A DNA stretch of 36,746 bases, taken from NCBI RefSeq assembly GCF_000743755.1, contig NW_014569438.1, positions 1 through 36,746 of the forward strand. Reading direction: 5' to 3'. Origin of the DNA: Blastocystis sp. subtype 4 (taxonomy: Eukaryota). This document shows positions 1,059 through 36,354 of the stretch, in pieces. A program made the position numbers and the translations under genes. A model generated the notes under the pieces. It was not told where the DNA came from. It ran no database searches and saw only the letters and a list, made by a program, of their open reading frames with translations. Position 1 is the first letter of the stretch, and each line of letters starts with the position of its first letter.

Positions 1059-1386
1059 GATATCTTCGTTTCGCGGCCAAGTACCTTATTCTCTTGCTAA
1101 ATATCACAGGCAATACTCTGCGATAAAAACAATTTAGAGATGACCGTCATGTGACCTTGTCAAACTGATTGGAAACGACCCCTGAAACCCCCTGCGTACG
1201 AAATTGATACGGTATCTTACAAGAATTGATATTTGAAAAGGTAGTATTGTGCGAAGACAGGTTTGTTTGATGTGTTTTGCTAATGTATGTGGTAGCCTAT
1301 CCAAAGACAGATATAGTATGGAAATTGGGATTTTCAGATAATCTAAAACTAGTTTATGTCATTTAGACGTAGATATGGTGAACAGA

Positions 1387-4300
1387 ATGATGTTGCAACG
1401 AGTGCTTTCTTGGTCTAGAAGATCAAGACACTCTCTGCAATGTTTTTCTACGACTGCTATTGGTACAGAAGCAGGGAATAAGGTAATAGTTAGGTCAATC
1501 GAAATTGTTGTTGAAAGGGAAACTAGGAAGTGGTCTTAAACTGACTGTTGATGAGTATTATTGATTCATGATATGTAGGCCATTTCACGTTTTCTAACGC
1601 TTTTGGAAGATGGTATTAATCCTTCATCTATTCTCGTCTTAACATATCCATAGAAGGAGAGTGCAAATCCTTTGATTCCTTTACTGGACACAAATCGTGA
1701 GAATGAACGACTTCAGTTGCAAGAAATCGTGGAAATGTAAATATGATATTGGGAACTGATTTGAGTAGGTTAGCTCCGTTATCATCCATTGAGACAGAGA
1801 TTGGCGGGATCAACTCGTTTGTTCGAAATATTTGCAAAACGTATCCTGATCTCTATGGAGGAGAGGATGTACATCTCATTAATCATCGCGAAGCGTTAGT
1901 GACCTTTGAATCAAACCGTCATCTCTTTCTCCCCAATGGTTCCCTTTTCTCTTCCAATGCCCAGACGACTAGACTCTTATTAAAGAACATCAGTTTGCTC
2001 AAATCTCGTGGCATTTCTCCTTCGTCCTTCTCCTCCCAACTGTCTTCTTTATATCAGTCAAAGGATAAAGACATTTACTATCAAAAGTATTCTGCCCTCG
2101 CAACTGTGTATTCTCTATTTGATCAATGGCTTCAGGACCATGGTCTTATCACTGAAAGTGATGTACTTCAACGAGTTTTGAATGATCAAGTGATTCTTGA
2201 TTCTATTGCTAAGCAATACTCTCATCTCTTTGTTCTTAGTATTGAGACATTGTCTCCTATTCAGAATCAGTTCTTTGCATCTCTTCTATCTCTTTCTCCT
2301 GTTCAATCTGCTCTTCTAACACAACACATGTCTCTCACTTCTTCAGATCTCATTGACCCTTCATCCTATTATCCTTCAGTCTCATCTCTAACTCTTCCAT
2401 CATCTTGTTTTGCTTCATCTTACATCGATCTTTTGAATCGTCGTTATGGTGCTGCTTCTGGAGAATTCACAAAGAAACAGATCGATGAATGGAAAGAGGC
2501 AGGAAAACCACAAATGGAGCGAATGAAGGTTATTACATGGGATCAAACTTCTTCTTCGAATTGTGTCCATGTGAGTGATTTCTATTCTGGAGTGGATGAA
2601 CAAGAAGCTATTGTGGAGAAACTCAAGTCCTTGTTTGCTACACCTCTTTCCCGAGAATTACCTTCAATTCCCGCGGGTCTCGCTTCGGAATCATCAATCC
2701 AGCAAATCAAGCAGTACCTTCAGAACCGAACTGGATGTGTAGCAGGAGTGTTTTTCAAGTCTTCGTAACATTTCATCTGTTTAATGAAATCTAGAAAGGA
2801 AGTCAGTCAATTCTGTCATTTACTGGAACAAGAACATATTTCATATCGTAGTCAATCTGAAACCCAATCTGTACTCATTCTATTGAATTTGTGATGATTA
2901 GTTGTATGAAGGCATCAATGTACTTCGTTTCATTAATGATCCATTCAACTCATCTGCATCAAATCCAATTGATATTCTTCAATTCAAATCACTCCAGCTC
3001 TCTCCAACAACTATCAATACAATTATTCGTATGCTTGATAGATTGTTGTCAATTAGGACGAAGTCACCAACTTAATCAATCCATCTTATCAACTCTTCAA
3101 TCAATCCAAAACGATTCGTTTCTCTCTCCAAATGAAGCTCAATCGATCAAACGACTCATATCCATAACTCTTTCTCTTCACAATGATCTGCTTCTCTCTC
3201 CAGGATCCTATCTTCTCATTCAGTTCTATAAACAGATTCAAGAACTGCCTAATCTCTTAACTGACAGCCAACGTCAAGCTTCCTTACTCTCCTTGTTGAA
3301 TGAACTTATGTATCTCGAAGATGGCCATTCACCATTGCTTCCTCCTACTGAAGATCACTCTGCTTTCAAGAAGCTTCATGAATACATCTCATTATTGCAG
3401 TTTTTGCCTCTTTTCCCGTCAGGATCATTAATTGAACGATTACAGCATCAACAAGGTCATCCCTTGATGAAACTCCTTCTTGAAACTGAAGGAATCAATT
3501 CTGTTATTGATGAGACATCCAGTGATAGTGACCCTAATGTTGTAGTTGTGGGTACATATAATGATATCAGTCCCAATTACTATGATGTAAGGATTTGCCA
3601 TTGTGTTCATTCTAGTATCTCTTTCTCCCTCAACTCAATTCTTCTCGTATTCCTTCTCATCGTGTTTCTACAAGCAGTATTATCCCCGCAGGAATCATTC
3701 AGCATTCATCTCTCACATCTCCTGTGAATTTTATTTCTCTTTCTCATTCTTAGTACATACCGATCTCTCCAGATCTCTCTCTCTTCGCACAGAAACTCTC
3801 TCAATCACTCTCATCTCCTTATCTTTCATTCACTTCTTTCACTCAGAATGTCACCAACTCGAATCTTCGATTATCAAAGCCATCTCCCTTCCTCTCTATT
3901 CTCTTTCATCATAAGCCATCACTCAAATCATCACCTCCTCCTTCTCTTCCTTCTGTAACTCTCTCCTTGTCTGATGTTGATATCTCTGAGTTACAGAAGT
4001 TGGATCATGGAGTGAAACAGTGGCTAGTGAGTGCGAGTCGATTGACGAAGTACCAACAATGTAAATATTCCTTTTATCTCGATTATGTCAATTTTATCCC
4101 CTTTTTTTGATCAGTAGATTCAACATGCAGCGAAACTCCCTTCCTTGTATCTAAGTTATGGGATTGCTCTCCATAGTTGTGTTGAGGATTTGACACCAGT
4201 AAATGAGTTGATAGTTGTGAGATCTAGCTTATTTGGAAGGCTGGGCATTTACGTGAACGTGTTTCCCATCCTCCTACGGATCACAATATAATGGCTGTGC

Positions 4301-5000
4301 TAGATAGTGTGGCATCCGGTACTGAGACAGATGTGCTACGACATATACTGCGAGCCCATTGGAACCCTGATGAATACCAGCCAGCTACTCTGGAGAAGAC
4401 AATGAAACTGCGCTATTATAACGGTGTGTTGAATTTCGTGCGAAGAGAGTTAGAACGTGTATTTGAAGAGAAAGAAAGATTGCAGCCGATGCATATAGAA
4501 TCCGAGTTTGAGATTCCGGGAGAGGTTATGGTTGGCAATTCAACAGAGAAATATCTGTTACGAGGTGTGTTTGATCGAATTGAGGGGTAGAAATGGAGAT
4601 TGAGGTTGATTCATAGGAAGAATGGGGATGAAGCTGTAATTGTGGATTATAAATCGAATCCATCCAATAAGGAGATGAATGAAAAGTCTTTTGCGTTGTC
4701 CGTGAAGACATATTATGGATTACAGACGGCGTGCTATTGGATGGCATTCCAAACCCTATATGGAAAAGAACCCCAATCAGTAGGAGAAAGTAAACAGTTG
4801 ATACGTAGATGCGGTTTGAGAACATCGAAAGTGGAGTCCAATATTCACCTGAGCTGAAAAGTGTAGACACAAACAAAGTGAATGACTCGGTTAAACGGTA
4901 CATTCAGGGAATCAAAGAAGGGGACTTTACCCCTTGTGGGAATGAATTTCAATGCAGTCGCTGTGAATTTAGAAATACATGCAAATATCGGACAGCTTAG
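1387..5000 (+). CDS. AddB/AdnA-like protein: organellar presequence + degenerate UvrD/SF1 helicase + Fe-S PD-(D/E)XK nuclease; about 12 introns
   Basis: N-terminus MMLQRVLSWSRRSRHSLQCFSTTA. UvrD-like segments: LLLKGKLGSGLK, RFLTLLEDGINPSSILVLT, GGINSFVRNI, KQYSHLFVLSIETLSPIQ, LRFINDP, KPSPFL. Nuclease motifs: SASRLTKYQQCKY, YGIALH, LRGVFDRIE, IVDYKS, QTACY, CSRCEFRNTC. Confidence 0.85.
1644..1691 (+). other. U12-type AT-AC intron, 48 nt
   Basis: 5' ATATCCAT, branch-like TTCCTTTAC, 3' CAC. It contains an in-frame TAG (1651-1653). Removal keeps frame and yields ILVLT-NRENERL. Confidence 0.75.
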
Positions 5001-5082
5001 ACCCATTTGTATTTGTTCAACAAGAAACACATCTAATAACCACACAGATTCACCCATACGATAAGTCAATCATACACTATCT

Positions 5083-5320
5083 TTAGGCACCAATAAGAAT
5101 GTTATTGATGGGAATGTGAATCAACTTTACGAAATAGCCGACAAGTCCCATAACAACAAAGCCAACAGCAGTGGCCGTAGCGGTCTGAGTGAATTCTATC
5201 CTTCAATGACAATTCGGAAAACATACCCTTCTTATCAGGCTTAGTGCAACGGTTGACCAAAAACTTGCTGTCTCTGATGAAGTCCTTTACAGGCTGGATG
5301 ATTTCGGTCTCAATAGTCAT
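5083..5320 (-). CDS. SEC61G: Sec61 translocon gamma subunit (SecE/Sss1), 1 intron
   Basis: [68 protein letters not shown]. Confidence 0.97.
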
Positions 5321-5433
5321 GATTCGATAAGCGTTTACAGAAATGTGACAAGTGGAACCTAATTAATTGGGACTATGAGTTTCATTCATGGATGTCCCTA
5401 TTGCTATCATTCCAGTTTTATTTCCTGCTTATT

Positions 5434-13539: not shown

Positions 13540-15338
13540 ATGGATGAGTCAGAATCGAAGGATGAAGCTCCCTCAACAGAGAACAGTCTAAACATGGATG
13601 TTTCAACTCTTCCGGAGCAAACAGTGATCGTAACTTAGTATTTGATGAATGTAATGACGAAGGAACGGAGCGAGAATCCAACAACTCCAAGGTCCACTTT
13701 TTTACGTGAACGTGACATTTTGGATCCTGCTCCGAATTCTATGTTTTCGGATCGCTATATTAGTGGAATTGAGAAATTTCAGTAAGAGAACTAGTTCCAA
13801 ATCACTCTTAGAGAGCAAGATTCGCCTTTTTTTGTTTCGGATTCCCTGCGCACAGGTGCTACCCCTCGGCTGTCATATCCATTAACACTTTCTCCGCCTT
13901 TGAAGCACTCTCCTACAGATATGGATTGTTCCCGATCTCCGTTTGTGTTTCATGACGTATACCATTTTATTTATCCATTCTGTATAGGTTTCAATAAATA
14001 ACTCACGTGCTGGTTATCGAATTAGTCATGAACAACAACCTGATGTATTGTTCCCTCCTTCGACATCCAATACAAGTGATCGGTCAATGATGGAAGGTGA
14101 CTCTTATTCACGTCCTTTGCCTGATCCTCATACTCCTCGTCTCTCCTCAGGTGCTAATCAACCTTTATTCGATAAATACTATTATTCACCAATTGCATCT
14201 TCTCGCATCGAACGTCCTCTGTTGAATTCGATTTCTTTGGTAATGTGTAGCTTCACAAACCATACAGACGATTCGATTTTATCAGTTCCTCTTTTCCTCC
14301 AAACCCCTCCTGTGGATAGTGACATCGATTTCGATAGTATGAGTCTTGATACACAGATGCGATGGCTACAACCTCCCAAGCTAGAATTGTCAGACGAATC
14401 TCAAAAGAAGGCTCATTATACGATGTATCGATTCAGTTCAGAACATGAAGAAGGAGCAGATACAACCAATACAGAACCTGAGACGACCGTAAAAGACTCT
14501 CCTAAGGGTAGAAGAAATAATCTGTATGAATGGTAGAAACACGTCCACGTCGGGATACGGACGATAGTTTTAGTGAGAACTACGAAGAAGAATCGATTGA
14601 AGAAGAGGAATTGCTGATTTCTTCCAGATCAGAGAGTTCGAATCATTCTCATCGTTCTCTTTCTTCTCGGCAGTCTTCTCGTTACCGTACAGATCACACA
14701 CGAAAAACTCATAATCAATCAGATTCGATCGTGAAGAAATCATTGAAGCGAAGTGGGACTGAACTCAGTAACTCATTATCAGGTGTCTCAACTTCAGCTG
14801 GAGAGCATTCTGCTACTCCAGATCCCTCATCAAAGGTAACAGAGGAGGGTGAATCTCAGTATTTTCCTGTGACTATTGCAGTAGGGATGGATGAAAAGAG
14901 TGAAATACAGGCACATCCTTGCAATTGCAAGAAATCACGATGTCTGAAATTGTATTGTGAGTGTTTCTCTGCTGATATGTATTGTAATGGGTGTAATTGT
15001 ACCTCGTGCTTAAACAATCCAGTACATTTGAAGAGAGAATGTGATCATCAGGCCCATCAGAAAGAACGGGAAGAAGCAAAACAGCTTCTTTTATCACGGA
15101 ATACGAATGCATTTAAACCACGTGTTGTTGCTGATGCTCAATTGAATCGGATCAATCTCAAAGGTTGTAACTGTCGTAAAACTGGCTGTCTAAAGAAGTA
15201 TTGTGAGTGTTATCAATCTGGAATTCCTTGTGGCCAGAATTGTAGATGTCAAGTAAGTATTAAGATAGGGCTTCATGATAGGATTGTCGAAATACAGGTG
15301 ATAGCGCCGTAATGGGGTCTAAACGTCCTGCGAAGTAA
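13540..15338 (+). CDS. Tesmin/TSO1-like CXC (CRC) domain protein, LIN54-like
   Basis: Two CXC motifs (CNCKKSRCLKLYCECF...C..C.C..C.N and GCNCRKTGCLKKYCECY...C...C.C.DC.N) joined by an RNTNAFKP linker. Long S/P/E-rich N-terminus. Confidence 0.9.
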
Positions 15339-16327: not shown

Positions 16328-17998
16328 TTACCAGAAATCATCCTCCTTTCTTCCTCTCGTTACTCCCCATTTATCAACAACTCTCTCCTTCACAGTTTCT
16401 TCTGTTACTTGTTCCGAGAAATCGGGTTCAAGGTTCACCATACCAACAGGTGCAGTTATAGATACCTCTTCTGATGTAATCTCTACTGGTTCCATTATTT
16501 CGTTAATCTCCTTGTCATCACTGACTTCATCAATCCCACTCTCCTTTTCATATTCAAATTCATCCTTCTCGTCCACAGCAACTTCTACTTCACTCTTATC
16601 CTGATCCAACTGATCAAGTTCCATCATTCTCTTCTTCAGCTCCTCATACTCATTTCGTATCATCTCGACATCCTCTTCATCACCCACATATCCAATCGGT
16701 TGACCCATCTTCACCTTCTCACCTGGTTCAACCAACCAATGAATGCGAGGGGCCTCAAATGCCATCACCACTGTCGAACCCAGAGCAAACGTACCCACAC
16801 GTTCACCAACAGAAGCTGGCCATATTGAATCATAATGCTTGTGATGATGATGATTGGAGTAGATGAGCTCATGAGGCTGGTTTGTCACAATCGGGTCTGA
16901 GAGATTGCTCAATTTGATGCTGCCAACATTATAAGCACCAACCATTCCGAGAGCGAAGAATCCTTCTTTCCAAGTGCCTGACAAAACAACCCTCTCATTC
17001 AGTGTAAAGAGTCCTTTGACCTTAGTTGCATATGATTCCTTCACAGGAAGCAATTTTCCAGGGACATGCACTCGATCAGTCACATTAAACCCGACAGGAC
17101 TGTGAATGTGATGATAGTTTGATGGAGAAAGATAGATTACAATACTGTAGAGATTGTTGGAGGAGTCTACAATAAGACAAAAGGAGAATGCTAACTATCA
17201 AGAGAAGGATGGGATCCTAAAAATTCTCGCAATGAATATGTGACTCCCTTAACTTGGTGCAGCTGAATATTTTTGTCACCTCCAAAATGCTACATGTTAT
17301 CTCATTACCAAACATCTACCTCATCCATAATACTAATGGTTCCATCCACTGGAGATACAATAGTTTTGGGATTCTGGAAAATAGGACGGGAACTGGGACG
17401 CAGGTCACGAGTAAAGAATGAATTAGGAGTTGGATAGTCTTCGAAGGCTCCCCTAGATGAGAATTCATGACAAAGGATACTGAAATTCAGAAACATCAAT
17501 TCCCACCACACGAGAGACATATGAATAAACGGGCTTTCTCCAACTCACAGGTCTAAAAGGAACAAACCAACTTATTCACATACAACCGAATATTCATCAC
17601 TTTCCCTATAAGTCGGCTTCCGGTACGATTCAATAGAAATGTATGTGCTGCAACCTATGAATAATAGACATCATGATAAAACAAACCTGCTTAGGAGTAA
17701 GGGTTTCTAACTCATAAGCCGTAGGATTGTTTAAAGACTGAATATACGCTTCCTTATCGTATGGAAATGCATATCCATACCATAGCAAACCTCCCACAGC
17801 TGCAAGACCTTAAAATGACAGATCAACCTGGATTACCTACCAACAGTGGTTGGATTAATCAATTTGCGATAAAATGGCTTGGTATCTACAAAGAATCAAA
17901 AAGTAAGAGAGAATAGTCATACTCTTGACTGTAGCAAACGACCGAAGAGAGGAAATCCTCTTTGAGGTAAGTCTCACAGAATTCGAGACAGAAAACAT
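16328..17998 (-). CDS. PISD: Phosphatidylserine decarboxylase, mitochondrial PSD1/PISD type, with acidic C-terminal extension
   Basis: Presequence MFSVSNSVRLTSKRISSLRSFAT; motifs FFTRDL, IVSPVDG, YLSPSNYHHIHSP, NERVVL, VGAYNVGSI, and the autocleavage motif FALGSTVV. Confidence 0.93.
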
Positions 17999-18499: not shown

Positions 18500-19897
18500 T
18501 TAGTAACTGTCCTCAATGATCCGACCCACCACTTCCGGTGTAATTCGCTTATTTTCTCCAAGGACGATCTTCTTATCAGTAAATCTATGGATCATGGCTC
18601 CTCCTAATCAGTACTTCTTCACCACATCCTCAATCCACTTTTTATCGTCACTGACCTTATACTGACAAATGTGAGTTGGTGTAGCCATCGTATTCTCATA
18701 AAACTCTTCAATCAGCTCAATTGTTCGCATGGCCATCTGAGGAATATTTCCAACTACATCAAACAATTCAGGTATATGTACCTTCGAGTCCAAACACACG
18801 ATGTCCCATCTGAGCTAGTTTCTGCATCTTCGCATCAAATTGGAAGCGAAGTACACGAGGCTACCCATGAGATAGAATATCCATTTCTACTTGAATACAA
18901 GCAAGCGTACAAGCATGATCCATTCCAAGATATGCTGTCAATTCATGTCCGATCATGTGTGTTGCCCAATCTTGAATCACACCTTGAGCAATCCATTTAT
19001 TCAGTGCCTGAGTTGCTGCCCACATCACATTACTCCTAGCAATATAACTGTGTGGATTTGACATCACCAGCTTTCCCTACCAGTGAGTAAAAACAACGAA
19101 ACAAACATTATCAATAAGAACTTGAAGTAAAGCCTCTGAATAACGATCCTGAACATCCGCATCTATTCATCAATCACATGAATGGAGATTACGCATGCAC
19201 ACGGTAAGATACTGTTCACAGACATGGACAAATGAATCTACAACACCGTTTGCTGTTTGACGGGTTGGAAGAGACATGGTGGTTTCAGGATCAAGAATGG
19301 AGAATTGAGGGAATACATGAGAAGAATTAAAAGCACACTTCATCTATACATTAGGTCCAAAAACAAATATAACATTTAGCTTCCGACGAGACAGAACAGC
19401 ACCATTATTGCTTTCAGATCCCGTCTACATATAAAACAGCAAGTTAAACGATATACAGCAGGAAGAGTCATCACACAGCCAAGAGGAACAGCCGATTGAA
19501 TTCCCTTTCCTCCTGACAGAACCATATTCCATGGATCCGGTGTCTCCGTATACTTTGAAGCAGCAGCAATGAATTTAGTTGCATCAGCAACAGAACCACC
19601 ACCCACAGCAAGAAGGAATGTATTATCAACACCCATAGACTTGACAATATCGGTAGCCTTTACAGCTGTATCAAAATCTGGATTTGCTTCGATTCCGCCG
19701 AATTCATTAACGGAGTATCCTTTCAATGCATCCATAACTTGGTTGTAAACTCCATTTCGTTTAATGCTCCCTCCACCATAGACAACAAGAACTTTCTTGT
19801 CTTTAGGAATCAACGAAGGTAACTTGGCGATTTGACCCTTACCAAAAACAATACGCGTAATATTCGCGTAGTTGAAGTTTTTCATCCCAGACAACAT
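18500..19897 (-). CDS. yqhD: Iron-containing NADPH-dependent alcohol/aldehyde reductase, YqhD/butanol dehydrogenase type; 7 introns
   Basis: TRIVFGKGQI, VYGGGSIKRNGVY, FGGIEANP, LAVGGGSV, TLPATGSE, PQFSILDP, QDWATHMIGHELTA, DHACTLA. Confidence 0.93.
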
Positions 19898-19960
19898 GAC
19901 AATCGAAGGTGTATTTGAATAATCAACACATTTCTTTTGTATTCAAGGGTGAAATTTTTC

Positions 19961-21066: not shown

Positions 21067-23972
21067 TTAGTTAGTAAAGTACTCTTTCAGGTACTTTGAC
21101 ATGAATTGCTTCTTCGAGATATTCATTAGAATATTCTGCTCAGCGATACTGATTGACTGAGATACTTCTTTCAGATTGTTCTCTTCCTTCGCAAAGAATG
21201 CTTGGAATTCAGTTAATTCTGAAGGAGTATCCAACACAGAACCACCTGCCTCAACGAAATAGCCAAGCATATTGAAAGAACCTCTCAGACTGTCCTTCAA
21301 CTTGCCCAAATTCTCCGCTAAGTATTCCCAACACATCTTATGATATTGACGATTGCGTACAACACTAGCAAAGCATGTATACGTATCCTGCTTACGAACT
21401 GTTCCATCCAGAGTGAAACCTAAAATACGACGTACCAGATTCGGGAAACGGGCCTGACCTACTGCTGCTATAATACGTCGCTTCTCAGCACCTGTTGTCG
21501 TCTCGTACTTCTCCATCAGCTGACTGATTGTTCGAGATACAGTCAATTCGTCTCCTTCCTTTACACCTTCACGCATACACAACAAACGGATCTCAGTATG
21601 GCAGACCGTTTCGTCGTTGTGCTTCATTAGTTCATTAAATCGACGAAGTGCTTCTGCACGTACAGTCTCATCCTCACAAATAGTACACAACGCTCTAGTC
21701 CATAAATCCAATCCCCATCTCTCACCCAAGAATCAAAGGACGTGCTGAAGTCTCATAAACATTCTCACCTTCAATTGGATCCCAACCACACACTTCATAT
21801 CCATGATACAACAACTGACGAGTGTATTCTTGATAAGGTACTTTTAGAGACTCATCAACATCTTCATAGAGCGAATTCAGTAATGATACTTCAAATTCAA
21901 GCACAGACCAATCATTCTCCTGTTTATAAGCCTCCATAAATGAAAGAAGATCCGATGGTTTCACTCTCTGGGCGTTACACAGGCGTTTCATATCCAGAAG
22001 AAGTTGAATTCGATCTAATGAAGAGATTTCTTGATCAGCAACAGCCTGTTTCAAAGCTGAAAGCATTGAAGCAGGATACTGAACAAGACAGAGAGTATAC
22101 TGATTGATCTTCAACCACTTATTTTCCTTCATCAATCGAGCGATCAATGTATCAAATTCTTCCTTCTTCTCATTCTCATATAACACCTGTTGTACTCCTG
22201 AAGGAGTAACAATAGCCAACGGAATCTTCCACTCACTACAATCAATTCTCGATCTCAGTTCTACCTTTCCTTCACAGGTTCTGCTGGGTTACTGAAAAAG
22301 ACTTGTTGATGTGACTCGATACGACCATCCTTCTCATCGAGTACGAGCAAAGGATATCCAGGTTCTTGGGTCCAACTACATATGAATCAGAAATTCCATA
22401 AAAACTTCTTCATAATGGCTTCACAGTCAAATCCACTTCCTTCACTCAAAGCTCTCCATAGATCTTCTGTGCAAGTATTCGAATACTTGTGACGATTCAA
22501 GTATATTTGCATTCCTTTTCTGAAAGCTTCTTTTCCAATGAAACTGACAAGCATATGAATGACTGAAGAACCCTTGTTGTAGCTTATTCCATCAAATATC
22601 TGATCAATCTCTTCAGGATACTTGACAGGTACTTCAATAGGATGAGTAGAAGTGAATGAGTCATCATAGAATGCAGTGCAGAAACTATCACTGTAAAACT
22701 CGGTGAACATGTTCCATTGAGGGAACAGATCATCAACACACACATATTCCATGTATGAAGCAAAGCCTTCATTCAACCACAAATGAGTCCACCACTCCAT
22801 TGTCACCAAGTCTCCAAACCACTACTTCTGAAGTGTATCCATTTGACTTACCATATGAGCAATCTCGTGAGAGACCACAAGAGAAACTCTCTTTTTGTTG
22901 GCAATACTCGCCGTCTTCTCATCAATCAGAACATCAACTTCGCGGAATGTCACACAACCCCAGTTCTCCATAGCCCCAGCAGCAAAATCTGGAATTGGAA
23001 GCAAATCCAGTTTCTTCAGTGGATAAGGAATATGGAAGAAGTCCTTTGCATTATCACACTCCATTTGTTTATACTGCATAGAAAGCAATAGCATGAAGAC
23101 CCACTTGCAGAGCAAAGTTACCCCATTCACTCTTACCTAGAGGAGTATAACTAGAGATTAGAAATGTGTCTTACTCGAACCAGTTCACCTGAACTCCATT
23201 CTTGCTGAAACCACTGATCATATCAAATTCACCAACAACAAAAGCAAGAAGGTATGTGGACATGATGGGAGTTTCGTCAAATTCAAAGATCTAGAGTGAA
23301 AAAGGAATAGGATGAAATACATTCTTCATCCCATGATCGTTAACAGTCAATTTCTTAACCACAGGCATATTACTCACAGCAGTGTAACCAACTGGAGTTG
23401 TTAGCCATACTCGGAAACGAGCCTTTAAAGCAGGTTCATCCCAACAAGGGAAGGCCATTCTAGCATCTGTTGACTCGAATTGAGTTGTGGCCATGTACTT
23501 TTCAACTCCATCCACAGAGTACTTGCTACGGTAGAAACCTTGCATGTAGTCATTGAGGATTCCACTGAAAACAACATGAAGCATGGCAGTCCCTTGTTTC
23601 AGAGGATGATCCAGCTTAAAGACCACACGTTGTTGTTTCTTGAGAACAAGAATTCTAGAGCTAAATCGTCCTTTATGTCCATACTGGTCAATCTTTGTTT
23701 CCACGTCCGCTACAGTTAGAGATGCAGACTACATGAATAACAAAACTAGGAGACGTATCGTACGTGAATTGCGAGTTCCTTCGCATTGAGCATAACAAAA
23801 TCAGTTTCTTCCTTGACATTTAGCTCAATGTCAACATATCCAGAGAACGTCCATTTCGTTAAATCAATATCTTCATAGTGAAGTGCATACCTAAGGTTCA
23901 CAATGAACTCATTGCCTACTTCACAGGTACAACATTCTTAGGTAATCTCACTTCTTCAATAGCAGCTTCCAT
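21067..23972 (-). CDS. M1 family zinc aminopeptidase, puromycin-sensitive type
   Basis: RLPKNVVP, GFYRSKY, TQFESTDARMAFPCWDEP, GAMENWG, HEIAHMWFGDLVTMEWW..LWLNEGFA, YNKGSSV, and an ERAP1-like C-terminal domain. Confidence 0.95.
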
Positions 23973-24134: not shown

Positions 24135-27100
24135 ATGTTTGAAAGACTACGTAAAGCTGGAGCCAATCTGACCAAGTTTGAAAATCTTGGATTGCCAAAG
24201 ATGACGGCTCCTCCTCCTCAGGAGAAGGAAACTCCTCTCTGTGGAGTGATCAGACGTGAAACAATCCTTCCAGATGAATTGAACACAACAGATTTCACTC
24301 GAGAACAACGGAAGAAGCGAACGGACGTATGGCGCAGATTTGAGTGATTAAGATATAGGCTTTGAAAGCGCAGCAGGAGATGGATGAGCAAGTGCTTAGT
24401 GTCCAGCTAGATCCTGCACGAATGGAGGAAAACTTTGATCCTGTCCCTGAAGTCATTGTAATAGATATACTTTGGTTTATAATTGGTTTAGAAAGATTAT
24501 CCAAATGATGAAGACATGAACGAGTTTTGGATGATTAAAACGGAAGGTCTGTTGAAATCTCAAATGGAAATTGTCGATGACCATCTCAATCGTGCTGTTT
24601 CTGCCAATTACAATGATTTCTTGACAGGCATTAAGCTCATTCAGGAGATTGATTTGGATCTGAGTCGTTCTGATATTTTCGTACAGAACACTCGTCGAAT
24701 GCTGGAAGCTTCCAAGAAACAGATTACAATCATATCCTTTGTTATGAATGTGTTGTGATGCCTTCACAGTACCCTGGATTATCTGTTGCTCATCAGAGAC
24801 GTCGTGAGATTCGTCTTCGTCAAGTCCAGAGTATCATTGAATCAATTCAGGCCTTGTCTCAAGTGGAATCCACACTTCATAAGGTCATTGAAGGTGGAGA
24901 TATCATCAAAGGTGTAGAGATCGCTTCCGAGTTGGAATCTATGATCATGTCAGAGGCATTGATGCAGTATACATGTCTGGATTCTATGCGTGCTCGAATT
25001 GAAGATTTATGGCCTCAGCTGAAGGAGAAATTGGTTCAGAATATTCGTGAACAACTCATCGAATTTGATCCCTTCATCTATAGCAACGTCTTCCGTACAT
25101 ACAGTGTTTTAGATGCTCATCTCACTGCTATGCAAGCTCAGAAACTTAAGAAACAAGCATTAGCAGAGAGTGCTAGTAATCGGAGTTTGGTTGGCAAAGA
25201 CGGTGGCTCGGCTCAAGGAAAGTCATCCAGTGCAAGTTCGTTGAAATTACTTCCAGCCAAGAAACCTGCAAAGCGTGATAGTTATGTTGATGTCCTTCAG
25301 AAGTGAGAATAACAGGAAGAATTGATTGATAGATGTGCTTGTGGTCTGATCACGGAGAAGAGTGAAGCTGTTCTGAAAGAATTCCTGATGCAACGCAAAG
25401 AGATGGCTCTACCTCGTGATCTGGTTCAGCAAATGGGATTCACACAGTTATGTACCTCCTTGAAGTATCCTGAAGTGAGAGATTGGAACGATTTGTGAGT
25501 AATAGTATCCGAAGAGTCTACGTGTTGTGATGGAGAGTGTTCTCGAAGTTCTTCATAGTTTCTACTTGATTTGTCAATGGCATCGCAAGCCTTTTGAAGA
25601 AGAGAGTTATGACTTGGATCAGTTGCATCAGAAGAATGTCATGGAGAATGAAGAAGAAGAAATTGGAAAGGAGAATGAGAAAGACTTGACTTCTTTTGCA
25701 ATGGCAGATAAAGAGGGTGTTTCTGGTACTACTCTCTTGATGGTTCGTCGTCAATTGCGTGTATCACGTCGTGTAAGGATGAATAAGTTGATTGATCTTA
25801 AGTCTATTTGGCAGCATTCACAGAGACTCGTTAATGACTTCATCAACTGTAGCAAGCTTGATAATAGTAACACTCATCTCGTGAAACAAATCCTTGTGAA
25901 TGATCTTTGCATGTATTTCATGAAAGTCTGATCACTGAACATCTCTTATACATAGCTTGGTGAAGTATTCTGTGGAAGTACTTCAGAGGAATTGAAGAGC
26001 AAGTTGGCAGCTAAGCAATGCAAATATATTGAGCACATCCACAGTAATACACTGGAAGTCTTAAAGAATTCATTAGAGACAGAAATGTGGCAAGTAGGAA
26101 TTCCAGAAATCAAATCATTTTTAGCCATTCCCAATGAAGCTTGCTGAAATGAATGGTTTCCCAGGATTGCTTCAGAGTACGCTCTCAATTCCTGAAGAAG
26201 AGAATATGTTTTTGTGGAGTAGTTCAAGTAATGTGGAGTCTGTGTTTATGAATTGGAAACATGACGGTAACTGCTTTGAAGAAGGGAAGAAGTTACAATT
26301 GGTTGTGGGACGATATCCTGAAGTGAAGAACAGTATAGATAATGCTCTGATTCTAACAGGAGTTGGGATTAATGCGTTTATCAAAAGTGTTAGCAAATAT
26401 ATGGATTTGATGCTTCATCTTCCATTATGTGCAGACTTAGTGTTTGCAGAATTATTGAATCTGGTTGATTACTATGTATATGGAGTAACTACTTTGTTTG
26501 CTCCTGAAGCACTATTGAATACTTTGTTTGTTGTCACGGATGGAAGTGAAATCTATCCATATATTGTACCATTCATTCGTCAATGTCAGCATATCTTATT
26601 CCCTAAAGAAATTGAAGAGAATGAGGAACAAGAAAGTGTGACAGAATTAGTTGAGAAATTAACGCCTTTATCTCAAGAACGAGATGATAATGAGGATCAT
26701 GAAGTAAGTTTTATACCATTCTCGTAAACTCTAGCTTCCACAACCAATTCTAACAGTCGATCCTTCTCTGTTGGAAGAGAATCGAGAGATCCGTCGTGTG
26801 GTGGCAGCAGAGAGTACTCGTTTGTTCTCGGCATTGTTCGATGCCATTCATGATCGGGTGAAGGCTCTCTCTCCGATGGTCTCAAGTGATCGTGTGAAGC
26901 AATACATATCAGAGTTACCTGAGATCACACAAGACTTGTGTAAGATGTTCTATCGCTGTTCTTCTCACAACATCCTTCAAGTATGAATTGTTGTTTCCAA
27001 TCATCATTAGCGTCTTGATGAATATAAACCACTGATCATCAAACAGAAATGGGATATTCGTACAGCGAAGAATCGTGATAGTGATTATATCACTATGATT

Positions 27101-27571
27101 GAGGATGACTTGAAGGAGACATGGGACGTATTGAACACAGCTCTCACAGAAGGTCGTCTAACTGTGTTATGTGTCTCTCGGTTCTGGCGTGTGCTGATGG
27201 GTTGTATATTGGAAGAGCTTCTCTTGTCTTATATTGCTGTTAAGAAGTGCTCACAAGAGGGTAGAGAGCAGATGGCAATGGATACAACAGCAATATACAA
27301 CTATGCAACTAGTCTCTGTGACATTCAGCCAGCAGACGATGCTAAGGACTTGAAGTATGTGTTGGACTATGTGACATGTTGTAAGTTGGATGAGCCTTCG
27401 GATGTGATTGCATGGGTGGAGAAGCATCATAATGATTATGGAACAGATGTGATTGATTCTATATTGAACTTTGCAATGGCCAAGAAGTTGAGTAAGCAAA
27501 AATTCAAGGAGTTGAAGGAAGCAATTCAAAGTATGTTTGCAGAAGGAGGAGAAGAGGTAAAGGAAGAATGA
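24135..27571 (+). CDS. VPS50: VPS50/syndetin-like (EARP complex; Vps54/Vps50 family)
   Basis: Vps54_N-like segment (QMEIVDDHLNRAVSANYNDFLTGIKLIQEI), LETEMWQ, and C-terminal KKCSQEGREQMAMD...YVLDYV. Confidence 0.8.
24732..24772 (+). other. U12-type AT-AC intron, 41 nt
   Basis: Perfect 5' ATATCCTTT, branch-like GCCTTCAC, 3' TAC. Removal joins ORF 24516 to ORF 24755 in frame (KKQITI|PGLSVAHQRRR). Confidence 0.88.
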
Positions 27572-31947: not shown

Positions 31948-34342
<2,395 letters not shown>

Positions 34343-35260: not shown

Positions 35261-36354
35261 TTAGGCACTATCACCTAGTGACCCAGTAATCGCTTCACGG
35301 GCTCGAATCATACTTTCAATCTGTTTCTCCAGTTTCTGTGAAAGTGCACGTGTAGCACTGCTCCACTGACTTACACGGCATTTCTTTGCATATGCCTTCA
35401 ACGACCGGGCTACTGGATAGGCTACTTCAGGGAATGCCACTTCTTTCTCCAGAAGCTTCATATAATCAGCCAGCAAGGCTACTGCACGCGATACAATAGT
35501 ATCCTGAACGGCCCGAGAGCCCACAAACGTCTTTGATACTTTGATGGCAAAGTTCACATCAGGAGGTTTGGCTGTCACTGGAGCCGGCTTCTCCATAAAC
35601 TTCTCGTTCTACTCATTATATGGACATTATTTACAAACTTCGATCACCTCCAGAAGGAGAGGAGGAACAGGAATATACACACCAGTTGCTGCTGTGATCT
35701 GGATGAACAGATCCACACAATGAAGGCGAACTGGATAGTAACGAACAGTAGGAATCAGATTCACTGTGCTTTCGATCACTTGAATCAGAGGATAAACCAG
35801 AGGTTGGAAGGCTTCCTTCAGAGATGGTTCTATCACCATATATGTCCACAGACGCAGACAATTCACAAATTGCCAACTATACACTGAATGAATACTACAA
35901 ATCAATCGCATTCAAATCTATCACTCAACAGCATTCATAGATGTCATTGCCTTACGAACATGAATGGCCAACTGACGGAGATAAACAAAAGCATGCTGAT
36001 ATCCGCTCACGGGATCCATCGAATACAGTTCCGTCACACAGTTTCGCATAACCACAAACCGTTCATGAGTGAGAGAAGTGTAGTTCTTCGAAGCCTTCAC
36101 AAAACTCAAATACATCATCTATATATTGTCTTCAACCCGAACTAATCATACTTTCATGGCAGACTCCATAAGGAAGGAATTCTTTGAAACTAACTTTCGC
36201 AACGTCAAAAACGCATTCAACCGATCCTTCTATTCATTACAATCCATACATAGTCACTGACTTCATTCTCTGAGGAACTCCATTCTTTCACAAGGAAAAC
36301 GAGATATTTCTTTGCCTCCTTCTTTGACATCTCCTTAGAATTCTCTTCTTCCAT
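35261..36354 (-). CDS. NOC2: NOC2-domain protein (nucleolar complex protein 2), lacking the usual N-terminal half; alternative start at 36471
   Basis: YQHAFVYLRQLAIHVRKA, VYSWQFVNCLRLW, PLVYPLIQV, PTVRYYPVRLH, TGVYIP, AFPEVAYP. Confidence 0.85.

Follow-up and report, generated by a model that had tools for sequence, protein, structure and literature searches.

A Blastocystis gene coding for an intact Fe-S-type nuclease with an eroded UvrD-type motor and a predicted organelle presequence

Does a eukaryote with a mitochondrion-related organelle employ a bacterial-style helicase-nuclease to process the ends of its organellar DNA? The question is raised by one locus in a stretch of 36,746 nucleotides from Blastocystis sp. 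subtype 4 (contig NW_014569438.1), hereafter the window. An earlier note, made from the letters alone, had read in it a single spliced protein with a presequence-like leader, a dead SF1 motor and an intact RecB-type nuclease, and had likened it to AddB and AdnA, with a partner helicase expected elsewhere.

The gene is expressed, nuclear and yields a single product. An RNA contig of 3,336 nt from run X1 spans positions 1264-4990 with 0 mismatches and lacks all 13 introns, while run X2 gave three short RNA pieces only and runs X3 and X4 none at the gene. Once the introns are removed, 1375-5000 reads as a single 1,071-aa frame free of internal stops. The single spliced protein announced in the earlier note therefore stands, and every motif quoted there is present in it; its size, given as about 1,080 aa, becomes 1,067 aa from the ATG at 1387 or 1,071 aa from 1375. 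Helicase and nuclease as two separate genes are ruled out, as one RNA contig covers both halves. Twelve of the introns are of the GT-AG type and measure 28-32 nt. The thirteenth, within motif Ia, combines all the features of a U12-type intron, namely AT-AC ends, ATATCC, a branch-point motif near the 3' end and splicing in RNA. It contains an apparent in-frame TAG at 1650, and because this TAG sits in a spliced intron, a premature stop and the pseudogene reading are ruled out. Just past the gene, TATTTGTT resembles the downstream poly(A) motif defined for Blastocystis (PMC4159000), from which polyadenylation near 5005 is predicted (Table 1).

Table 1. Positions in the window of the gene, its exons and the main features of its product.
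Feature	Position	Strand	Basis or remark
Gene, 14 coding exons, 1,071 aa	1375..5000	+	spliced RNA contig, translation
Exons 1-7	1375-1462, 1494-1546, 1579-1643, 1692-1736, 1769-2764, 2795-2870, 2902-3028	+	
Exons 8-14	3057-3586, 3616-3723, 3754-4086, 4118-4198, 4228-4586, 4617-4779, 4809-5000	+	
Predicted organelle presequence, aa 1-24	1375..1446	+	Arg-rich, acid-free, amphipathic
Eroded Walker A (motif I), aa 38-45	1517..1540	+	alignment
U12-type AT-AC intron, 48 nt, 5' ATATCC, branch-point-like TTCCTTTAC	1644..1691	+	spliced in RNA
Exon 5: 1A/1B and start of 2A, dead motor	1769..2764	+	alignment, fold
Eroded Walker B	2229-2255	+	in exon 5
Motif III	2295-2336	+	in exon 5
Motif IV	2394-2414	+	in exon 5
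2B and 2A parts, dead motor	2902..3900	+	alignment
Eroded motif V	3548-3583	+	in 2B/2A region
Motif VI	3769-3810	+	in 2B/2A region
PD-(D/E)XK (PF12705-type) nuclease with Fe-S staple	4021..4997	+	alignment
Nuclease residues C799; D964-x-K966; C1057/C1060/C1066	4060-4062; 4645-4653; 4953-4982	+	
TATTTGTT, 1 change from the Blastocystis downstream poly(A) motif	5010..5017	+	sequence

Alignment with 33 bacterial relatives confirmed that the SF1 motor is dead, with every ATPase motif eroded. The invariant or near-invariant residues of the Q motif and of motifs I, Ia, Ib, II, III, IV, V and VI are gone, among them the Walker A Lys (kept in 33/33 relatives), the Walker B Asp-Glu (33/33) and the motif VI Arg (32-33/33). 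The nuclease is intact by its sequence, as had been proposed: H826, E925, D950, D964-x-K966 and Q990/Y994 are all retained, together with four Cys in the 1+3 pattern of an Fe-S staple, from which a cluster is predicted. The fold of exon 5 reached a pLDDT of 36.5 from the single sequence and 73.7 with a 41-row alignment. The latter structure matches PcrA/UvrD first (E ~2e-4), then AddB (2.7e-3) and AdnA (2.3e-2), matches that are partly circular because 33 of the 41 rows are UvrD-Cas4-like fusions. Sequence searches of solved structures with three exons gave no meaningful match.

About seven further lineages supplied exon-sized orthologous fragments, 34-77% identical. In each of the three fragments that include the site, Walker B is dead. 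The conservation of the motor subdomains, compared over three fragments with inferred boundaries, appears inverted with respect to active bacterial enzymes. In the latter, the 1A core (61-64%) is better conserved than 1B (44%) and 2B (26%), whereas the distant orthologues retain more of 1B (58% and 54%) than of the C-terminal part of 1A (28% and 45%), and more of 2B (49%) than of the N-terminal part of 2A (37%); one close orthologue lacks the 1B/1A contrast (80% vs 73%).

The closest relatives by score are single-chain bacterial enzymes, the UvrD-Cas4-like fusions (UvrD-helicase + UvrD_C + PF12705) described by Hudaiberdiev et al. 2017 (PMC5704561). Class profiles gave 143.7 bits for the fusions, 91.9 for AdnA, 57.1 for AdnB, 23.8 for AddA and 17.8-26.5 for three context-defined AddB profiles, scores that favour slowly evolving families and include a fusion class gathered from a top-hit seed. 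As 20 shuffled controls reach at most 0.9 bits against any of seven profiles, the fusion match is not due to chance. Ranked by phmmer, the first 22 of 84 bacterial proteins are without exception fusions, AddB reaching at most 20.5 bits and AdnA at most 14.1; the protein is colinear with the fusions along its whole length. Single orthologue fragments score best with AdnA or short AddB in 4 of 12 cases, and one matched nothing. The AdnA-like architecture formerly proposed, a motor-like domain and an Fe-S nuclease in one chain, is borne out, and AddB as the family is not (18-27 bits, vs 144 for the stand-alone fusions and 92 for AdnA).

That the protein is nevertheless an orthologue of AddB, strongly diverged and perhaps handed down by the alphaproteobacterial endosymbiont, is accordingly very improbable. 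Such a reading would agree with the atlas features of exon 5, where ADDB_N clusters stand at 0.94-0.95, and with a weak Pfam ADDB_N match (12.8 bits for a cut-off of 26.6, E=0.069), but ADDB_N is not diagnostic since the active fusion L025 matches it too. The motor half alone obtains at most 8.7 bits with the AddB profiles vs 37.2 with that of the fusions, and the NCBIfam AddB models TIGR02773/02774/02786 have no match on the 8 exon pieces scanned. Pfam Exo5 matches only the last Cys cluster, under its cut-off (E=0.15). In an LG+G4 tree the protein groups with AddB (97), but it and the AddB rows alike have long branches, and a site-mixture model splits them, placing the protein on the AdnA/AdnB/fusion side (SH-aLRT 94).

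The nuclease-only tree gives no clear placement, and in none of the trees is the protein nested inside the fusion clade. AU tests reject neither the fusions (p=0.27, two fusion constraints being identical in value) nor AdnA (p=0.31) as sister; they cover these two sisterhoods only, because the free tree already held the AddB grouping. A bacterial origin, as the earlier note had it, is likely, although the trees do not single out a donor. Descent from the endosymbiont is unsupported: the short-AddB class, with alphaproteobacterial rows, scores 26.5 bits, and 151 alphaproteobacterial genomes yielded no fusion at E<=1e-100.

The arrival of the gene may be old. Its 14 exons, and a minor intron that seems to recur in a lineage of just 47% identity, imply a long residence, which would suit a fast-evolving Blastocystis member of an older and wider eukaryotic family. 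Such an origin would be compatible with the mechanism favoured below and we hold it unlikely. An exhaustive search of 1.84 billion representatives with one 331-aa exon as query returned 13 hits, none of them a full-length eukaryotic protein, a search too weak to pick up even the relatives from bacteria. Longer homologues were also sought by shared words, starting from exon 5, exon 12 and alignment A1, and none came up, which is weak evidence. A metagenome scan recovered the window twice, in near-identical form, together with a single locus that is unrelated; no match came from viral contigs or plasmids, nor from PADLOC on 4 exon pieces. A match to P0013 (NRPS, E=4.6e-4) was discarded as spurious.

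Where the protein acts depends on its N-terminus. The leader noted earlier is presequence-like in its composition, and import into the mitochondrion-related organelle is predicted. Five Arg lie within the first 30 aa, and acidic residues begin at position 57, so that none precedes Walker A, vs at least one in 33/33 bacterial relatives (mean 3.5); the helical moment of the leader ranks among the highest 2% of all windows of the protein. Acid-free stretches with at least four basic residues also make up 23 of 1,015 internal 26-aa windows. Standing where helicases have their Q motif, and in register with it, the leader has an alternative start at 1387 and exceeds typical bacterial N-termini by only about 6-10 aa, with no long extension. 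This short excess would fit the same dead-motor nuclease working in the nucleus or cytosol, in flap and fork processing or the removal of foreign DNA, its acid-free N-terminus being a decayed Q-motif segment. The repair list of PMC5608401 (S6 Data) marks KU70/KU80/LIG4 in no subtype and DNA2 as absent in ST7, so nuclear gaps exist, and bacterial UvrD-Cas4 fusions frequently occur in defence contexts according to PMC5704561. On the other hand, the five Arg, the 56 acid-free residues and the helical moment fit a matrix presequence, and EXO1, FEN1 and MRE11 are listed as present and available for nuclear resection (PMC5608401 S6 Data). We consider a nuclear or cytosolic site quite unlikely.

Within the organelle, the protein could be the passive subunit, comparable to AdnA or AddB, of a heterodimeric resection machine whose active 3'-5' UvrD-type motor is encoded by a second nuclear gene. 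A co-transferred adnAB-like pair or the duplication of a single-chain gene would supply the two halves, which would make 3' tails for an organellar RecA. We see this as possible, if on the unlikely side. The division of labour would be that of AdnA and AddB, AdnA ranks second among the profiles and withstands the AU test as sister, and the conservation of 1B and 2B could mark a subunit interface. Furthermore, recA and MSH1 are listed in ST1, ST4 and ST7 (PMC5608401 S6 Data, where the location of recA is not given). Against it, the best-scoring relatives stand alone: the fusion is the sole PDDEXK_1 frame longer than 700 aa in 40/40 draft genomes checked, hence a second subunit is not implied and the partner that 'should' exist does not follow. 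AdnA and AddB moreover keep Walker A according to PMC13000450 and PMC3321194, which the Blastocystis protein does not, and the 20 neighbouring ORFs scanned within the window include no helicase partner. The ST1 organelle list (PMC5608401 S3 Data) names two helicases, Twinkle and Pif1, and no UvrD or nuclease; it is incomplete for DNA enzymes, as DNA polymerase and RecA are missing too. UvrD was not found in the other supplements searched either. It is somewhat more doubtful that Blastocystis runs an AdnAB-like organellar machine of its own, with this gene as the nuclease half and an unrecognised active UvrD-type paralogue as the motor, jointly loading RecA.

We favour, with a probability of roughly 40%, a candidate role as a nuclease that acts on 5' strands without ATP, at the ends, forks and flaps of organelle DNA, the dead motor serving as a clamp. 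A Blastocystis ancestor would have gained a single-chain UvrD-Cas4-like (or AdnA-like) gene, and the Q-motif segment, useless after ATP binding was lost, would have turned into a cleavable presequence. The motor may have been retained for its grip, with subdomains 1B and 2B holding duplex DNA or a protein. By analogy with AdnA and AddB, the Fe-S staple would sit at the duplex junction while the 5' strand is fed into the nuclease. Unwinding would be supplied elsewhere, by strand displacement, Pif1 or Twinkle, and the job would therefore be that of MGME1, Exo5 or Dna2, that is, flap or primer removal and the processing of broken ends.

The maintenance of the Blastocystis organelle genome is barely described, and this conserved and expressed gene is a candidate for its missing end- or flap-processing step. 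We found no description of the gene, or of such a mitochondrial enzyme, in the open-licence full-text literature. If the protein acts alone, it would represent a new route to a mitochondrial structure-specific nuclease, a bacterial helicase-nuclease with its motor switched off. If a motor partner exists, a bacterial-style resection machine of the RecBCD/AddAB/AdnAB class would operate in the organelle of a eukaryote and may have arisen independently, through duplication of a single-chain bacterial enzyme. Under either reading, the origin of the dead-motor subunits AddB, RecC and AdnA from an active single-chain ancestor becomes testable. The gene also draws attention to the unstudied single-chain enzymes of Patescibacteria.

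Among known systems, the UvrD-Cas4-like fusions are the most similar, with the best profile and pairwise scores and a single chain of about 1,000 aa in which a PcrA-like body precedes a 1+3-Cys PD-(D/E)XK nuclease; the set analysed here is equated with the PMC5704561 clade by architecture only. They differ in being prokaryotic, in having no presequence and in their intact motor motifs (Walker A 24/25, Walker B 25/25), all of which are eroded in the Blastocystis protein. AdnA of the actinobacterial AdnAB is alike in its length (one chain of about 1,000-1,200 aa) and in joining a motor-like domain without demonstrated motor activity to a 5'-strand Fe-S nuclease, which cuts the 5' strand of blunt ends without ATP (PMC13000450). 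In the same source, AdnA keeps its ATP binding and phosphohydrolase motifs and is paired with AdnB, whereas Walker A and B are gone in the Blastocystis protein; the AdnA rows that we analysed vary (Walker A 9/17, Walker B 3/17).

AddB of AddAB likewise combines an inactivated SF1 scaffold with an Fe-S-staple 5' nuclease, and its mode of action would be broadly similar. It differs by its obligate partner AddA and its low sequence scores, and the Bacillus enzyme keeps Walker A and scans for Chi (PMC3321194), while the Walker A Lys-Thr is absent in Blastocystis; in the short AddB rows, Walker A is found in 0/26. In AddB, RecC and AdnA, as described in PMC13000450 and PMC3321194, the SF1 motor that does not work makes up one half of a larger assembly. 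Exo5, MGME1 and mitochondrial Dna2 resemble the protein in being nucleases of the PD-(D/E)XK type that act on DNA of the organelle; Dna2 has the same Fe-S staple. MGME1 and Exo5, the latter with an Fe-S cluster, remove flaps and primers and process broken ends in mitochondria, and neither is known to have a helicase body. In Dna2, the nuclease lies N-terminal to a different SF1 helicase. The mitochondrial role of Dna2 is described in PMC3378879.

Transcription and splicing of the window gene are directly supported by RNA. A single contig from the RNA run X1 covers 1264-4990 with zero mismatches and skips 13 introns, and the spliced frame starting at 1375 encodes 1,071 aa without internal stops, as the one-protein splicing proposed in the earlier note had anticipated. 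Both 1375 and 1387 are possible start codons, and the first 110 bases of the contig carry five upstream ATGs, each stopping early or out of frame. A broken gene, suggested by an in-frame TAG at 1650, was ruled out, the TAG lying inside the spliced 48-nt AT-AC intron. A protein fragment from a lineage 47% identical (P0035) appears to read through the same intron, which interrupts the same Thr codon and, back-translated, measures 43 nt (as judged from the protein sequence only). Since the gene is probably of bacterial origin, the AT-AC intron would have been gained after transfer.

The surroundings are eukaryotic, rich in introns and of ~39% GC. The motif TGTTTGTT occurs 12 times in the window against 2.5 expected. 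Upstream of one copy a poly(A) tail stops at a distance of four bases, the spacing described for Blastocystis (PMC4159000). Introns of ~30 nt and AT-AC minor introns are likewise known from Blastocystis (PMC5608401 section 8; PMC10639083), consistent with the window. From the short introns, the AT-AC minor introns, the motif excess and the poly(A) spacing together, we infer that the host is Blastocystis. Six neighbours are ordinary eukaryotic genes by Pfam, and the alcohol dehydrogenase gene is a possible further transfer.

Features of the window, with the evidence for each
Feature	Coordinates	Strand	Remarks
Head-to-head neighbour	138-about 1070	minus	Expressed, spliced, roughly 290 aa, several Cys/His clusters; two exon ORFs without Pfam match
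U12-type AT-AC intron	1644-1691	plus	48 nt, RNA-confirmed
Small spliced gene	5039-5333	minus	Convergent with the window gene, about 40 nt apart; product presumably resembles Sec61 gamma; unspliced ORF without Pfam match at E<=0.01
Tesmin/TSO1 CXC protein	14530-15312		Pfam; ordinary eukaryotic gene
Phosphatidylserine decarboxylase	16328-17194		Pfam; ordinary eukaryotic gene
Iron-containing alcohol dehydrogenase	19376-19942	minus	PF00465; bacterial-looking
M1-type aminopeptidase (ERAP1_C)	21067-23728		Pfam; ordinary eukaryotic gene
Syndetin	27011-27571		Pfam; ordinary eukaryotic gene
MCM subunit	32308-33964		Pfam; ordinary eukaryotic gene
Noc2	35261-35608		Pfam; ordinary eukaryotic gene

By Pfam, PDDEXK_1 pieces are present in each of the four ORFs that bear the nuclease (best E=1.9e-5), and exon 5 shows a weak match to ADDB_N; Atlas features likewise mark exon 5 as ADDB_N, and an orthologue of the following part as UvrD_C. 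The spliced protein was compared with 957 ORFs from 120 of ~3,700 genome stretches with a matching nuclease motif. The nine best (31-55 bits, 930-1,040 aa) match both its halves, and the five scanned combine UvrD-helicase, UvrD_C and PDDEXK_1 domains in a single chain, for which PcrA is the nearest solved structure. The alignment to these relatives is colinear from Walker A through the last cysteine. In a comparison with 33 proteins of this type, the residues they conserve in the Q motif and motifs I-VI are missing from the window protein, which retains every nuclease residue and the 1+3 cysteines, bearing out the eroded SF1 motor and intact four-Cys nuclease of the earlier note. On established SF1 chemistry the protein can almost certainly not hydrolyse ATP, and it is probably an active Fe-S nuclease.

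Seven class profiles, with classes set by gene context or seeded search and three redundant or truncated fusion rows left out, gave the clearest family assignment. The single-chain fusions scored 143.7 bits (25 rows), ahead of AdnA (91.9; 17 rows), AdnB (57.1; 17 rows), AddA (23.8; 35 rows) and three AddB classes (20.4, 26.5 and 17.8; 10, 26 and 14 rows); the shuffled protein reached at most 0.9 bits. Among 84 pairwise scores, the 22 highest all belong to fusions. By sequence, the protein is not an AddB, and that half of its earlier AddB/AdnA-like label falls (17.8-26.5 against 143.7 bits). Trees are weaker evidence than the profiles. Under LG+G4 (41 full-length rows) the protein lies between AddB and the AdnA/AdnB/fusion group, with AddB-side support of 97; a site-mixture model (26 rows) places it within the AdnA/AdnB/fusion side (support 94) with no resolved sister, and a nuclease-only tree gives its placement no resolution. 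AU tests reject neither the fusion nor AdnA as sister.

The fusion architecture is that of UvrD-Cas4, described in PMC5704561 as monophyletic and either stand-alone or in defence contexts. Fusions occur in 28 of 61 genomes in the phylum of genome G003, 24 of 41 in that of G002 and 4 of 31 in the class of G005; none was found among 151 genomes of the alphaproteobacterial class of G176, where divergent fusions above 1e-100, such as that of G178, would escape the search. In Patescibacteria and the phylum of G002, the single-chain PcrA plus Fe-S nuclease is predicted to be fully active and is often the sole long PD-(D/E)XK protein (fetched loci L044:5374-8340 and L020:2491-5403, plus 38 other genomes). 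It was the sole PDDEXK_1 frame >700 aa in 40 of 40 rechecked carriers, all draft genomes, in which no AddAB, AdnAB or RecB was found. Such an enzyme is a candidate one-gene resection enzyme and a model for the AdnAB ancestor. Separately, some frames at the adnB position (L148:333-6059 and G011:C64) measure 1,900-2,300 aa between their flanking stop codons, probably through open-frame overlap in GC-rich DNA.

Searched exhaustively, exon 5 matched 13 proteins, 12 of them exon-sized fragments of the motor part at 32-99% identity; the other, an NRPS, was dropped as spurious. Because several fragments end at positions of window introns, they appear to be orthologues from other Blastocystis lineages. 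Seven span 1B (mutual identity 33-60%), and Walker B is dead in all three that cover it. Active bacterial enzymes conserve their ATPase cores more strongly than 1B and 2B; the distant fragments show the opposite pattern. This inversion and the shared Walker B loss argue that the dead motor is old and selected for something besides ATP hydrolysis. A near-identical metagenome copy (L002) is missing 14 bases at window 4629-4642, in a nuclease exon, where a frame shift is expected; the gap may reflect misassembly or mark a null allele.

The N-terminus has no acidic residue ahead of position 57; five of its first 30 residues are Arg, and its helical moment is strong. All 33 bacterial relatives carry acids ahead of Walker A. 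Against import, the leader is short and stands in place of the Q motif, and 23 of 1,015 internal windows of the same protein resemble it. On balance, import into the organelle is likely. The window gene is real, expressed, conserved and unusual; its organelle location is predicted and a partner hypothetical. No earlier description of the enzyme was found in the open-licence texts searched.

Known systems suggest how a dead motor could serve a nuclease. In AdnAB, the 5' strand threads through the Fe-S nuclease of AdnA, whose motor-like domain possibly serves as a passive conduit; nicking of a blunt end does not require ATP (PMC13000450). For AddB, PMC3378879 and PMC3321194 respectively describe an Fe-S staple required for end binding and a dead helicase that scans Chi. 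By analogy, the window protein would attach to DNA at a junction and cleave the 5' strand there. On the favoured reading it would do so as a solitary clamp-nuclease, unwinding being supplied by Pif1, Twinkle or strand displacement. We give this a probability of about 0.4 and favour it because the relatives are single-gene and a term search of the published organelle list found no UvrD. Pairing with a dedicated motor subunit, as the earlier note proposed, is only somewhat less probable: it has the precedent of known systems, an AdnA link that survives the AU tests and the presence of recA (PMC5608401 S6 Data) in its favour. The functional side of the AddB/AdnA-like label stands: in outline, the window protein would work as AdnA or AddB does.
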